Part shown: piece after piece, positions 53,443 through 60,937 of the stretch | How the letters are laid out: each line of letters opens with the position of its first letter | Position numbering within the stretch: the first letter of the stretch is position 1 | Assembly: GCA_951406725.2 (NCBI GenBank) | Contig: OX597814.1 | Location: 77,748,001 to 77,812,000, forward strand | DNA: 64,000 nucleotides | Direction of reading: 5' to 3' | Source: Octopus vulgaris | Lineage: Eukaryota | Notes under the pieces: generated by a model | What the model was told of the DNA's origin: nothing | Databases searched by the model: none | The model's input: the letters and a program-made list of their open reading frames with translations, nothing else | Position numbers and translations under genes: made by a program

Positions 53443-55116
53443 TTGAATGAAATTTTTCTGTAGCTTGTAATTCATGCCTTTCAACTTCTTATACGGAGGT
53501 AAACATTTAGATTTAATTAGTGTGCATAGCTGCTATTTTTTTAAATCTCTGCATCCTGTGGTAGTATATATATAAAAAAAGAGAAACGATGCAATGCAGT
53601 TGTCAGGTTTCGGTAGTGGATTACCAACTGCGTGGTCATAAGTCAAATATAACTATAGCTATTTAGTGAGTTTCTGAGCAAGGTACATAACTCTGCAAGC
53701 ATTGTGTAATGCCTGGAGCAGTAAATATACAGGCATCTCCCTACCTCCATCTGCATTATAGAAAAGCTGCATTCTTGAAAATCTTACTGCAGTGTTGAAT
53801 TCAATTGTCTGAAACCTATTTTCTCCATCACTTCCATGTTACATAGAAGTAAGTCAACAGGAAAATAAGTTTCATATTTCAGAATAACACATTACAGCAA
53901 GTTTTTCCAGAGCATAATGCTTTTATAACATGGAAAATGTTTGTATTAACTAAAAATAATGTAATCTGATAAAATGATATTAGTCAGCGGTTGATAATAT
54001 AATGCTATATATATATATATAATAAGTCTGTAAACAATTCTTACATAGTGAATCTGTCATCACTATTTGGCTGGTACAGTTAAAGATATATATTGTTTAG
54101 GAGGTTAGAATAAGACCAAAACATGTCTAAAATTGACTCCCATATCTGCCTGCAAAAATAAAAGAATAATATTAGTTTTAGATTAATGTTTTTTCAACAA
54201 ACACACACACACGCACGCACGCACGCGCAGCAGGCTTCTTTCAGTTTTCATGTACCATATCCACTCACAAAGCTTTGGTTAGCCTGAAGCTATTGTAGAA
54301 GACACTTGCCCAATATGCCATGCAGTGGGACTGAATCTGGCACCATGTGGTTGGGAAGCAAACACTTCTTACCACACAGCCACTTCATGAGAGTTGATTT
54401 GGTTTGTTTGGTATGACCCAGATACATGGCGAAACATCTATGTTGAAAATGAACTCATCATTCATGAGTCAGGCAGCAATAATGCTACACCTTAGGGCAG
54501 TGAGCTGGTAGAACTGTTAGCATACTGGGCAAAATGGTTAGTAGCATTTCATCCACCTTTACATTCTGAGTTCAAATCCCTCTGAGGTTACTTTTCATCC
54601 TTTTGGGATCAAAAAATAAGTACCAGTTGAACACTGGGGTTGATGTAATCATTTTACTCCCTCTTCTGAAATTACTGGCTTTGTGCCACGATATTGAAAT
54701 CAATACTACTACACTTTGTCTAAGTTACTAAATTGAAGGACTCCAAACTGAAATGAAATTTATATGAATTTATATATAAAATTTCATTAATTGAAAAATT
54801 AAATTTCATTTTGACATAAATACTGAAAATTTAGTTTCTTAGAGATATGGCTGTGTGGTTAAGAAGCTTGCATTGCAATCGTGTGGTTTCAGGTTCAGTC
54901 CCATTGCATGATGCCTTCAGCAAGTGTCTACTTCTATAGCCTTGTGAGTGAATTTGGTAGATGGAAACTGTGAGGAAGCTCATCATATATATATATATAT
55001 ATATATATATATATATATATATATATATATGTAGGTCCCGGGTTGATTCGGGGTTAACCACAGTAAGTAAGGTACTCAATACATAGCAGAGTAAAATTAA
55101 TTTATTATATAGAAGG

Positions 55117-55167
55117 AGCTTCTACAGGACTAGTACTGTTTCATTCAAGAGAAATCTTCAGGGAGCT
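55117..55167 (-). ncRNA. Hammerhead ribozyme motif (short variant)
   Basis: reverse complement of 55739-55789 with one stem I change. Confidence 0.6.
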
Positions 55168-55738
55168 ATTTAACAAGAATTGTATTAGCATTTATACATT
55201 TAGGCAGGTTTAAAGGAGTGGTGGTGGGGGACTTTTTGGGGGTAGGCATAGTGCAAAATATCATACTTGGGGGAGTGGTCAAGGAGTCAGTGGTAAGTTA
55301 GATGAAAGAATAGATAAATAAAAAAATAATAAAAAAATAAAAAATAAAAAAATAAAATAAAAAAATAAAAAAATAAAAAATATAAATATAAAAAAATATA
55401 TATAAAAATATATATATAAAATATATATATATATATATATATATATATATATATATATATATATATATATATATATATATTTTATATATATATATTTTTT
55501 TATATATATTTTTTATATTTTTTATTTTTTTATTTTTTTATTTTTTTATTTTATTTTTTTATTTTTTATTTTTTTATTATTTTTTTATTTATCTATTCTT
55601 TCATCTAACTTACCACTGACTCCTTGACCACTCCCCCAAGTATGATATTTTGCGCTATGCCTACCCCCAAAAAGTCCCCCACCACCACTCCTTTAAACCT
55701 GCCTAAATGTATAAATGCTAATACAATTCTTGTTAAAT

Positions 55739-55789
55739 AGCTTCCTGAAGATTTCTCTTGAATGAAACAGTACTAGTCCTGTAGAAGCT
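55739..55789 (+). ncRNA. Type I hammerhead ribozyme motif
   Basis: agcttc CTGAAGA tttc-tctt-gaat GAAA cag-tactagtc-ctg TA gaagct; 6-bp stem I, GUA cleavage triplet, U-U at 10.1/11.1. Confidence 0.65.
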
Positions 55790-56204
55790 CCTTCTATATA
55801 ATAAATATATATATATATATATATATATATATATCATCATCATCGTTTAACGTCTGCTTTCCATGCTAGCATGAGTTGGACGATTTTGACTGAGGGCTGG
55901 TGAACCAGATGGCTGCACCAGGCTCCAATTTTGATCTGGCAGAGTTTTTATAGCGGGATGCCCTTCCTAACGCCAACCACTCCGAGAGTGTAGTGGGTGC
56001 TTTTTACGTATATATATATATATGAGTGATTGGACAAATGAAAGAAAAGGCACTCAGCACATTTATTGGGAGTTACATGTATTGTTCAAAACTGCTAAGT
56101 TACTGGGACATAAACAAACCAACATCAGTTGTCAAGTGATGGTGTGGACAACCACAGACATATGCACATACATGTATACTTTATATATAATATATATATA
56201 TATA

Positions 56205-56793
56205 ATAGAAATATTAAAATTACTAAGTCTCTCTAAAAGAGAACAGCAGCAGCGTTCCCGGAAAATAATAGTTATCGCCATACTAATATGGCATTCTTAT
56301 AAAAATAAGAATAAAGCTGTCCGCTTATTAGCTCCATGAGGCCATCGCCTTAAGTTAGCTATTTGATACACAAACTGTATCCATATAACCTTCGAACAAG
56401 AAACCAAATCAACTCTCATGAAGTGGCTGTGTGGTAAGAAGTGTTTGCTTCCCAACCACATGGTGCCAGATTCAGTCCCACTGCATGGCATATTGGGCAA
56501 GTGTCTTCTACAATAGCTTCAGGCTAACCAAAGCTTTGTGAGTGGATATGGTAGATGAAAACTGAAAGAAGCCTGCCGCGCGCGCGTGCGTGTGTGTGTG
56601 TTTGTTGAAAAAACATTAATCTAAAACTAATATTATTCGAACAAGAAGAAACTGACCTCCCTTGTTCGAAGGTTATATGGATACAGTTTGTGTATCAAAT
56701 AGCTAACTTAAGGCGATGGCCTCATGGAGCTAATAAGCGGACAGCTTTATTCTTATTTTTATAAGAATGCCATATTAGTATGGCGATAACTAT
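56205..56793. mobile_element. Fold-back element (~133-bp inverted arms 56268-56400 and 56661-56793) with captured local DNA
   Basis: no mismatch noticed between the inverted arms; insert 56401-56638 is an inverted copy of 54164-54405. Confidence 0.75.
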
Positions 56794-58344: not shown

Positions 58345-59164
58345 GACACACGACTACAAGAACTAAAAGATACCCTACAAGATACCCTACAAGAACTAAA
58401 AGATACCCTAATCACCAGGAACTATCCACCTTCACTTATTGACAAATGCATTCAACGTGCCCTTGTCTACGACAAACAATTAATATACCTCAACTTTAGA
58501 ATAAAAGAAAAAAATATATATACACACACAAATACTACACTCCATAGAATCCATTACTAATCAGCCCCTTCATAGCTATATTTACACCCATTCATATTCT
58601 CCCTTCTCTGTTTTTTTCTTCTTCTTCTTCTTCCTCTTCTTCTTCATCATCATTGGCATCATCATCATCGCCACCATCATCACCACCATCTTCTCCTTCT
58701 TCTTCTTCTTCTTCTTCTTCATCATCATCGTTATCATCATCATCGTCGTCATAATCATCACCACCATCACCATCATCGTCATCTTCTCCTTCTTCTTCTT
58801 CTTCTTCTTCTCCACCCCCTACCCCTTAAGTTTGTCACTAATGTTTTTTAGTATAACACCTACGCTAATTCTATAAACAAGCCTGTCAATATAAATATTC
58901 TCCTGAATTGAACTGAGACTGCCAGCCGCCACTGACCATTCAAAATACGACCATCAGGGCACTCCCAGATTCTCCCATCCCCCTTTCCTCACCAGCCTTC
59001 CCTCTACTCCCCTACCAAGAACTCACAACTACCTCCAACACACAAGTGCAAACAAGGGAGTCAGAGAAAGGCAGAATGCCACTTAAATCTGAACACTACT
59101 ATAGAAATATTCTTTTAAAAAAACTTTTCTTCTAATTTTTCTAAATTTAATTATTTAATCGTTA

Positions 59165-59202
59165 CAGTTGAAAAGGTCTCAAAATGACCGAAACCGGTAC
59201 TG
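59165..59202 (+). ncRNA. Minimal Penelope hammerhead (U3-A8 variant)
   Basis: cag TTGAAAA ggtc-tcaaaat-gacc GAAA ccgg TA ctg; palindromic ACCGGT stem III. Confidence 0.72.
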
Positions 59203-59289
59203 AAATGTTCACTATAAAATTATTTTAGCATTTTCTATTTTTTACTTGTTTTTTCATATATATCAACTCATGTGTTCCTTTTCACCCTT

Positions 59290-60730
59290 ACATATATATA
59301 CATATATATATATATATATATATATATATATATATATATATATATATATATATATATATATATATATATATATATATATATATATATATATCACACACAC
59401 ACACACACACACACACACACACACACACACACACACACACACACACACACACACACACACACACACACACACACACACACACACACACACACACACACAC
59501 ACACACACACACACACATATATATATATATATATATATATATATACATATACATATATATATATATATATATATATATATATATATATATATATATATAT
59601 ATATATATATATATATATATATATATATATATATATACATATATATATACAATACACATATATATATATATATATATATACATATATATATATATATATA
59701 TACATATATATATATATATATATATATACACACACACACACACACACACACACATATATATATATACATATATATACACACACACACACATATATATATA
59801 TACATATATATATATATATATATATATATATATATATATATATATACATATATACACATACATATATATATATATATATATATATATATATATATATATA
59901 TATATATATATATATATATATATATATATATATATATATATATATATATATATATATATATATATATATATATATATATATATACACACACACACACACA
60001 CACACACACACACACACACACATATATATATATATATATATATATATATATATATATATATATATATATATATATATATATATATATATACATATATATA
60101 TATATACACACACACACACACACATATATATATATATACACACACACACACACACACACACACACACACACACATATAAATACATATACACACACACACA
60201 CACACAATATATATATATATATATATATATATATATATATATATATATATATATATATATATATATATATATATATATATATATATATATATATATATAT
60301 ATATATATATATATATATATATATATATATATATATATATATATATATATATATATATATATATATATAAAAAAAAAAATATATATATATATATATATAT
60401 ATATATATATATATATATATATATATATATATATATATATATATATATATATATATATATATATATATATATATATATATATATATATATATATATATAT
60501 ATATATATATATATATATATATATATATATATATATATATATATATATATATATATATATATATATATATATATATATATATATATATATATATATATAT
60601 ATATATATATATATATATATAATATATATATATATATATATATATATATATATATATATATATATATATATATATATATATATATATATATATATATATA
60701 TATATATATATATATATATATATATATATT
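59290..60730. repeat. Compound (TA)n/(CA)n microsatellite, ~1.4 kb
   Basis: read directly from the sequence. Confidence 0.97.
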
Positions 60731-60937
60731 ATTATATAGAAGGAGTTTCTACAGGACTAGAACTGTTTCATTCAAGAGAAATCTTCAGGAAGCTTCCTGA
60801 GCTTCCTGAAGATTTCTCTTGAATGAAACAGTTCTAGTCCTGTAGAAGCTCCTTCTATATAATAAATTAATTTTACTCTGCTATGTATTGAGTACCTTAT
60901 TTACTGTGGTTAACCCCGAATCAACCCGGGACCTACA
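60729..60937. mobile_element. Minimal fold-back element: two back-to-back hammerheads (60744-60794 minus, 60800-60850 plus) plus tail
   Basis: same family as 55031-55806; 60800-60937 is the reverse complement of 55031-55167. Confidence 0.8.

Follow-up and report, generated by a model that had tools for sequence, protein, structure and literature searches.

An inverted truncated copy, a one-sided tail, a bias towards (TA)n, hammerheads on opposite strands and insertion beside earlier copies are all already published for Penelope-like elements (PLEs), in the accessible parts of the sources. The accessible text of Craig et al. 2021 (PMC8557442) describes PLE insertions with an inverted 5′-truncated copy and a one-sided tail of 30-40 bp, associates a CX2-5CxxC linker, which defines Neptune/Nematis, with (TA)n targeting, and presents MRC1 as a non-autonomous PLE derivative. 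Palindromes at the inverted junction and host DNA trapped between pLTRs appear in the portion of Arkhipova 2013 (PMC3846280) that is available, and insertion into or beside earlier copies in that of PMC6765202. Minimal hammerhead pairs lying on opposite strands ~100-700 bp apart are interpreted as truncated PLEs, and a U3-A8 core variant is known (Cervera and de la Pena 2014, PMC4209133). For the PAc Poseidon element of Anolis, both strands are cut and extended and there are two RT start sites (Frangieh 2024, PMC11167929). Non-LTR retrozymes (Cervera and de la Pena 2020, PMC7229834; Li et al. 2026, bioRxiv 10.64898/2026.07.22.740005), which are derived from pLTRs (bioRxiv 10.64898/2026.07.22.740005), are short, non-coding, PLE-tied and carry a type I hammerhead.

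The octopus locus described here probably represents four likely separate PLE insertions of three high-copy families, each consisting of two 5′-truncated 3′ ends joined head-to-head, that likely landed successively in an intronic SINE, within its TA tract. Most likely the units do not form a new class of tiny ribozyme elements but are ordinary cut-short insertion products, and so read the stack is a compact example of a known product and carries little weight. It does provide footholds on how inverted structures and the microsatellite bias arise, a question raised in the accessible text of Craig et al. 2021 (PMC8557442): a fixed distance of 92-93 nt from cleavage site to end in two unrelated families, seemingly separate priming of the arms, and a capture with known local source and strand.

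Four fold-back units within one intronic SINE

The window, which is the whole 64-kb stretch of DNA analysed, contains four consecutive head-to-head inverted-repeat units (U1, 55031-55806; U2, 56205-56793; U3, ~56801-59292; U4, 60729-60937). These had been proposed in an earlier note on this DNA and are recovered by arm alignment, with the end of U3 moved to ~59292. The features of the region are as follows.

54164..54408, no strand: SINE head flanked by unique DNA, lying in the intron that holds the stack; source of the U2 capture (sequence comparison, read contigs)
54845..54984, + strand: host SINE head (aligned with six other window copies, the capture source and two pieces)
54985..55030, no strand: (TA)23 tract between SINE head and U1
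55031..55420, - strand: U1 long arm, with non-coding 3′ end, hammerhead (core from 55161, cleavage site 55123) and tail (55031-55099) (arm alignment, motif scan)
55421..55480, no strand: U1 fold-back centre, (TA)n (sequence)
55481..55806, + strand: U1 short arm, hammerhead 55739-55789 (arm alignment, motif scan)
55833..56009, no strand: unrelated dispersed repeat that ends in (CAT)n (repeat comparison)
56023..56190, - strand: inverted piece of SINE middle with non-SINE flank (SINE alignment)
56205..56400, - strand: U2 long arm, hammerhead-free, extra outer 63 nt at 56205-56267 (arm alignment, contig depth)
56401..56650, no strand: U2 captured spacer, 54164-54405 copied in inverted orientation, together with a 12-nt filler
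56651..56793, + strand: U2 short arm, whose inner end lies 10 nt deeper than that of the left arm
56801..58344, - strand: U3 left arm, U3:A8 hammerhead core from 56891 (alignment, motif scan, ORF fragment)
57583-58353, - strand: U3 ORF fragment with thumb, CX4CxxC linker and GIY-YIG (Pfam, protein alignment)
58348..59292, + strand: U3 right arm, hammerhead 59162-59205, tail ~59264-59292 (arm alignment)
59293..60728, no strand: (TA)n/(CA)n tract of 1.4 kb between U3 and U4
60729..60794, - strand: U4 short arm, beginning at hammerhead stem I (arm alignment, motif scan)
60800..60937, + strand: U4 long arm, hammerhead 60800-60850, tail 60868-60937 (arm alignment, motif scan)
60955..61120, + strand: host SINE tail (SINE alignment)
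61219..61449, + strand: CEP162 exon 3′ of the stack (homologue search, 100%)

The stack lies within one intron of CEP162, which has 20 collinear exon matches on the + strand; the preceding matched exon ends near 50528, and the flanking exon is identical to a protein named for Octopus sinensis (neither Pfam nor the protein atlas named this exon). The SINE head and tail are collinear on the same strand and both resemble one and the same subfamily copy, with ~25 nt of the middle absent, which bears out the suggestion that the whole stack sits inside a single SINE. The units were also said to be separated by (TA)n; TA tracts are indeed present, but the interval 55833-56190 holds two other repeat pieces, one of them with a (CAT)n end of a type seen 13 times across the window. 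Each of the eight arm ends has a TA tract of at least 8 nt no more than 6 nt away; of the remaining window positions, 7.5% have one within 10 nt. The eight are non-independent, as tracts are shared between ends. Target-site duplications are unreadable inside TA runs.

The two arms differ by two substitutions in U1 (with the A/T tract left out), by four substitutions and four gap runs over 803 columns in U3, and by one substitution in 66 positions in U4, and are identical at 133/133 positions in U2. One arm is longer in all four units and not in three as had been thought, with U3 contributing the tail at ~59264-59292; the last 29 nt of its right arm are probably part of the U3 family. That arm also has two short slippage duplications and a 659-nt deletion at 58464/58465. 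The long ends extend 92, 93 and 93 nt beyond the predicted hammerhead cleavage site, in both hammerhead families. The fold-back centres of three units are self-complementary: that of U1 is a TA run, that of U4 is AGCT at stem I, and that of U3 is a hairpin with a 3-nt loop.

U1 and U4 belong to one family in opposite orientation, as proposed, and the resulting ~137-bp inverted bracket (55031-55167 and 60800-60937) differs at three positions. Reading the 5.9 kb as a single element with 137-bp terminal repeats was rejected, as each end owns an inner inverted partner and its own variants. Because the arms of each unit share their own loop-3 variant, the bracket reflects a single family that inserted twice, separately and in opposite orientations.

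Hammerhead motifs and the coding unit

A descriptor scan of the 64-kb window identified six hammerhead motifs, the number previously reported, with two each in U1, U3 and U4 and none in U2 or in the rest of the window; no motif was found in any of 200 dinucleotide shuffles of the region or 30 of the window. The descriptor had been loosened after inspection of the sequence to admit the U3:A8 core and one stem I mismatch, and two of the six motifs pass a stricter first scan requiring an unchanged core and a stem I of at least 4 bp. The six are copies of two families only. The Rfam search that the earlier note had recommended gave nothing at the gathering score, the top match being Hammerhead_HH9 (19.7 bits versus 52, E 0.09). 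Stem II of the U1/U4 motif is weak, with 3 bp, and the conserved G10.1-C11.1 pair is missing from it; an alternative fold is more stable (-8.5 kcal/mol) than the hammerhead-type one (-5.7 kcal/mol). U1, U3 and U4 carry type I hammerhead motifs, i.e. predicted ribozymes. They resemble the minimal metazoan PLE hammerheads (PMC4209133) in the short stem I, the palindromic loop 3 (U1 and U3), the U3-A8 core (U3) and the opposite-strand pairs a few hundred bases apart, and differ from them in the weak stem II of U1/U4, the imperfect loop 3 of U4, and the motif-free U2.

The U3 ORF fragment scores 23.2 bits with Pfam GIY-YIG (cut-off 22.6) and has 48-57% identity to seven of 564 candidate proteins, six of which have an annotated RT domain; for RT+GIY-YIG proteins the identity is 55-57%. 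It matches the C-terminal 250 aa of these RT+EN proteins, the RT core having been lost from this copy; in alignments against prokaryote genomes there were 55 pattern matches, none of which was confirmed. The linker cysteines (C122, C127 and C130; CX4CxxC) are invariant in all seven rows, as are C155, C166, C169, H188 and H205 (CCHH). Judged from its sequence, U3 is a 5′-truncated EN+ PLE, with the predicted GIY-YIG domain C-terminal to RT, the CCHH motif and a 3′ hammerhead, and the CX2-5CxxC linker preceding GIY-YIG marks it as of predicted Neptune/Nematis type. The proposed link to Penelope, the hammerheads and the preference for TA are upheld.

As far as the accessible text of PMC8557442 and PMC3846280 goes, the octopus units share with EN+ PLEs of this type the 5′ truncation, the adjoining inverted truncated copy, the one-sided tail and the junction palindrome, together with the C-terminal GIY-YIG, the CX2-5CxxC linker, CCHH, TA targets and capture of host DNA. 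They differ from the insertions described there in being without a direct pLTR or partial tandem, in that two tails are 63-69 nt (~69 nt in U1/U4, 63 nt in U2) where 30-40 is published, and in having four events side by side with an identifiable capture source 2 kb away. PAc (PMC11167929) is similar in its two alternative 3′ ends, its AT-rich targets and a far end ~90 nt past the cleavage site; its RT start lies 111-118 nt into the ORF and the cleavage site at 26, giving 85-92 nt to compare with 92, 93 and 93 in the octopus units. However, PAc belongs to the Penelope/Poseidon clade and is without the CX2-5CxxC linker, unlike U3, and an in-frame ORF start such as that of PAc was not found in the octopus pLTR pieces.

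Formation of the inverted arms

The units are inferred to have arisen as follows. The element protein would nick both strands of AT-rich DNA and each nick would prime a separate cDNA on the element RNA, one beginning at a distant start site, which lies 92-93 nt beyond where the hammerhead is predicted to cleave and would produce the tail, and the other at an internal TA-like site. Both cDNAs would halt early and then join at a self-complementary spot (the TA run of U1, AGCT of U4, the hairpin of U3), with accompanying slips and template jumps, one of which may have brought 240 nt of host intron into U2. TA runs would be kept on both sides after each insertion, such that the site stays a target for further insertions.

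A somewhat unlikely alternative, already proposed in the accessible part of Arkhipova 2013 (PMC3846280), is that the same elements used self-priming, with one cDNA folding back at a palindrome and copying itself to make the second arm. This would account for the self-complementary centres of U1, U3 and U4 and for unit-specific variants common to both arms. However, the tail-less arm of U2 has 10 inner nt missing from the tailed arm, and the tailed arm of U3 is without 659 nt found in its partner, so that simple copying of one arm from the other does not account for them unless later deletions are added. Such private sequence in each arm of U2 and U3 favours two separately primed cDNAs, although the asymmetries could alternatively come from later deletions in unstable hairpins.

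Families, captured intron DNA and contig support

The three families (U1/U4, U2 and U3) are very deep in read contigs of all four runs, including the U2 long arm; depth here is summed and is not copy number, and supports only the description 'highly repeated'. Metagenome contigs contained no match to exact motifs from either the U1/U4 or the U2 family. An alternative is that U1 and U4 (and perhaps U2) belong to true non-autonomous, ORF-less families moved in trans by a PLE protein, a reading we consider unlikely. In its favour, U1 is ORF-free over 390 nt, the summed contig depth is high, and there are precedents in MRC1 (accessible text of PMC8557442) and the pLTR-derived retrozymes (bioRxiv 10.64898/2026.07.22.740005). 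However, U1 reaches only ~300 nt 5′ of the hammerhead, which is inside a non-coding 3′ end like the ~690 nt of U3 and equally G-poor (G content 0.05 in U1 and 0.07 in U3); U1 and U4 differ in their 5′ ends; and the motif is of the minimal PLE type. With at most ~300 nt 5′ of the hammerhead, U1 and U4 are too short to show a family lacking an ORF. The units do not fit retrozymes, in which repeats run head-to-tail and every repeat has a hammerhead that can release a monomer or circle, whereas all octopus arm pairs are head-to-head, with one motif per strand and no head-to-tail repeats.

In the sequence analysed no ORF is tied to the U1/U4 or U2 family, and the type I hammerhead, inverted truncated copy and one-sided tail of U1/U4 likely reflect EN+ PLEs. 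The self-standing system of tiny non-coding ribozyme elements envisaged earlier is unsupported: U3 is a truncated coding element, U1 and U4 end well within the normal 3′ non-coding length, the U2 family extends past the present copy, and fold-back with a one-sided tail is published for autonomous elements, in the accessible sources. In a fuller version, which is speculative and rather doubtful, a Neptune-type protein that primes both strands would carry ORF-less Penelope-derived octopus families (U1/U4 with a hammerhead, U2 without) in trans into TA tracts, and its RT could jump to nascent host pre-mRNA, which the antisense capture in U2 would illustrate. The accessible literature yielded nothing on these families or on PLE capture of nascent intron RNA; they may already have entries in Repbase, Dfam or the O. 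vulgaris repeat library.

The U2 spacer has a clear local source, in that 54164-54408 matches 56398-56638 in inverted orientation (96.7% over 245 nt) and lies 2 kb upstream of U2; this source and its flanks are covered by contigs from independent runs. Read as a continuation of the left arm, the captured 240 nt is antisense to the CEP162 transcript, and the 12-nt filler duplicates the end of the left arm. Rfam gave no ribozyme match for U2 up to E 10, comparison by eye with the 3′ ends of three octopus Naiad consensus sequences gave no match, and it folds somewhat more stably than shuffles (z -2.15, 4/200), though too little so to name a structure; the Naiad/Chlamys clades are also without a hammerhead (accessible text of PMC8557442). 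We place U2 among PLEs solely by its shape, i.e. the inverted truncated copy, one-sided tail and (TA)n, and its outer 63 nt is probably the family's own tail, on depth and position. U2 might instead be a fold-back element or a DNA transposon with an internal deletion, gap repair having supplied the filler DNA, as its hammerhead-free, 133-bp perfect inverted arms around captured local DNA and its TA flanks would allow. This is improbable given the extra high-copy outer 63 nt on one arm, like that of the PLE units, a short arm whose end, like those in U1, U3 and U4, falls at a TA-like match with the target, and continuation of the family inward from one arm (contigs extend before 56651 in three of the four runs, among the matches listed).

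The contig comparison skipped simple repeats and the interval 59291-61400, which covers the U4 site, and bins 57296-57479 and 58584-58767 were uncovered; no contig crosses a unit-flank junction of the stack among the matches listed (32 of about 353,000 pieces). These unspanned junctions, the nearly identical arms and the nearby tracts of 1.4 and 2.3 kb might indicate assembly or library artefacts formed at long TA tracts, but this is very improbable, as the arms differ in substitutions, microsatellite lengths, a deletion and one-sided tails, the shape agrees with PLE insertions in the accessible literature, and contigs of all four runs contain joints inverted as in U4 (55162 to 55740), at depths of 39-327, near or above single-copy depth.

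Hairpins of this kind are open to mislabelling as MITEs or microRNA precursors by annotation tools. The matches in an Rfam search of the whole window were to microRNA models on hairpins and TA repeats, all under the gathering score, and were set aside as reflecting shape only.

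Four inverted-repeat units in a CEP162 intron

Twenty collinear exon matches on the + strand (5448-61452; residues 47-964 of P0008, the CEP162 homologue protein) place the window, by sequence, in the CEP162 gene, and the exon at 61219-61449 shows full identity to a protein labelled Octopus sinensis by its source. The stack and its surroundings lie between consecutive exon matches (end near 50528; start 61213; + strand). Self-comparison recovers the four inverted-repeat units described previously, all of them head-to-head.

Arms of the units (U1-U4), with predicted hammerhead cleavage sites and long ends
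U1: arms 55031-55420 and 55481-55806, TA run between arms; 2 substitutions, counted outside the A/T tract; cleavage site 55123, long end 55031 (92 nt past it)
U2: arms 56205-56400 and 56651-56793; identical at 133/133 common positions
U3: arms about 56801-58344 and 58348-59292; over 803 columns of their common outer part, 4 substitutions plus 4 gap runs; cleavage site 59199, long end 59292 (93 nt)
U4: arms 60729-60794 and 60800-60937; 1 substitution; cleavage site 60844, long end 60937 (93 nt)

The earlier note's observation is thus confirmed in the assembled sequence, with corrections. One arm is longer at its outer end in all four units rather than in three, by about 69 nt in U1 and U4, 63 nt in U2 and, judged by position, probably about 29 nt in U3. 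U1 and U4 are a single family and the 137-bp inverted pair bracketing the stack (55031-55167 and 60800-60937) is present, but the arms within each unit carry that unit's own loop-3 letter, so U1 and U4 are separate events and the bracket is their by-product. The SINE head and tail on either side are collinear and belong to the same subfamily type, lacking about 25 nt from the middle, and are likely, if not proven, to be one split SINE. Two further repeat pieces sit between U1 and U2.

Hammerhead motifs and element identity

All six hammerhead motifs reported previously are recovered from the 64 kb by a descriptor that was loosened after the data had been seen. They are confined to U1, U3 and U4, with none in U2, and no motif occurs in 200 region shuffles and 30 window shuffles. 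A stricter first scan passes two of the six, with unchanged core and long stem I, recovers the U3 pair only when two core changes are permitted, and returns two chance-looking rows elsewhere. In the Rfam scan proposed earlier no hammerhead reaches the gathering score. The core in unit 3 has U at position 3 and A at position 8, a covariation known in Penelope-like element (PLE) hammerheads (PMC4209133). The U1/U4 motif has a standard core with a 3-bp stem II that lacks the G10.1-C11.1 pair; compared with its hammerhead-type fold, an alternative fold is more stable by 2.8 kcal/mol, and folds of two copies pair via loop 3. Self-cleavage by these motifs is putative.

The U3 left arm contains an open frame of 256 codons, which scores marginally over the cut-off for Pfam GIY-YIG (an endonuclease domain) and has 48-57% identity to seven of 564 candidate proteins, six of them with an annotated reverse transcriptase (RT) domain. 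A CX4CxxC linker and the CCHH residues show no variation across the seven aligned rows; the CX2-5CxxC-type linker is a Neptune/Nematis mark, linked with TA targeting (PMC8557442). We conclude that the stack is probably a pile-up of truncated PLE insertions. The earlier note suggested tiny non-coding Penelope-mobilised elements, a reading that is supported in part, for its Penelope link. A non-autonomous family would accord with the absence of any ORF found in U1, but is unlikely: U3 carries the GIY-YIG ORF, and U1 extends only about 300 nt 5′ of the hammerhead, whereas the non-coding stretch in U3, of the same G-poor make-up, is about 690 nt, so the lack of an ORF in U1 is expected from truncation. 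U2 has no named relative, and comparison by eye with 3′ ends of octopus Naiad elements, as given in part of the Craig supplement, gave no match. In O. vulgaris, 31 PLE families have been active recently (PMC13282606), and those of U1-U4 may be among them.

Elsewhere in the window, the RT portion of PLE proteins matches weakly by tblastn at 11186-12615 (-), with E 0.002-0.9, and this stretch is possibly an old decayed PLE. Open frames (4225-4812 (-), 2859-3239, 11781-12197, 32968-33399 and 62589-63158) resemble what we take to be a piece of a mariner-type transposase and pieces of RTE-type LINE RT.

Probable insertion at TA tracts

Each of the eight arm ends is no more than 6 nt from a TA run, compared with 7.5% of other positions within 10 nt of one, although the ends are not independent and part of the TA letters are element sequence. 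The long ends of two unrelated families finish with the same four letters ahead of the TA run, and their distances past the cleavage site compare with 85-92 nt, derived from published numbers, for the Anolis PAc element, in which each of the two DNA strands is cut and extended, and the tail is set by two start sites (PMC11167929). The short ends stop at TA-like sites within the element. The centres of U1, U3 and U4 are self-complementary, with slips: U4 has a 9-nt duplication, and U3 has two short duplications as well as a 659-nt deletion. The U2 spacer (56398-56638) is an inverted near-identical copy (one substitution plus microsatellite changes) of 54164-54408, a SINE head that, with its unique flanks, lies 2 kb upstream in this intron; after the spacer the U2 left-arm end is briefly re-copied, and the right junction returns to the element via a 3-nt match.

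On the evidence of this one locus, two cDNAs primed separately, one per arm, would fit better than a snap-back copy, because each arm of U2 and U3 has element sequence missing from its partner, unless later deletions are invoked. If the left arm is taken to continue into it, the piece captured in U2 has antisense orientation relative to the CEP162 transcript, and nascent CEP162 RNA is therefore a possible template, DNA equally so.

These units share the inverted truncated copy, one-sided tail and TA bias with published PLE insertions, for which palindromic junctions, host DNA between the terminal repeats (pLTRs) and insertion beside earlier copies are also described (PMC8557442; PMC3846280; PMC8969392; PMC6765202). 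Hammerhead pairs on opposite strands, 100-700 bp apart, were previously read as truncated PLEs (PMC4209133). Retrozymes, in contrast, are head-to-tail repeats (PMC7229834; bioRxiv 10.64898/2026.07.22.740005), which these units are not.

Read contigs and neighbouring repeats

We compared 53800-59290 with four contig sets, each from a different study. Depth summed over contigs is about 20-140 in bins of unique flank; for all three families it is about 1e5-1e6 on the outer parts and those bearing hammerheads. Such depth is not copy number and supports only 'highly repeated'. At least three joints (among 15 of 788 listed) link an inverted arm to a direct arm within the hammerhead or close to it, and the U4-form joint, 55162 to 55740, is in all four runs. 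Contigs of the U2 family extend before 56651 in at least three of the four (among 24 of 4,664 loose-end rows listed). None of the 32 pieces listed spans a stack junction.

The intron that holds the stack also has a 2.3-kb (TA)n/(CA)n tract (51148-53442; length as assembled) without a Penelope insertion. A dispersed repeat ending in (CAT)n is present at 55833-56009 and in 12 more copies in the window; five of the 13 adjoin a TA run, so other repeats are also drawn to TA tracts. Short tandem arrays with units of 63, 66 and 24 bp (1210-1473, 5762-5916, 22316-22694 and 50770-50982) follow copies of this repeat. Another tandem repeat (18623-19185), with no hammerhead by descriptor scan, is G-poor, resembling PLE 3′ ends; it begins at a TA run and has 2.3 copies of a 240-bp unit that are 99% alike.
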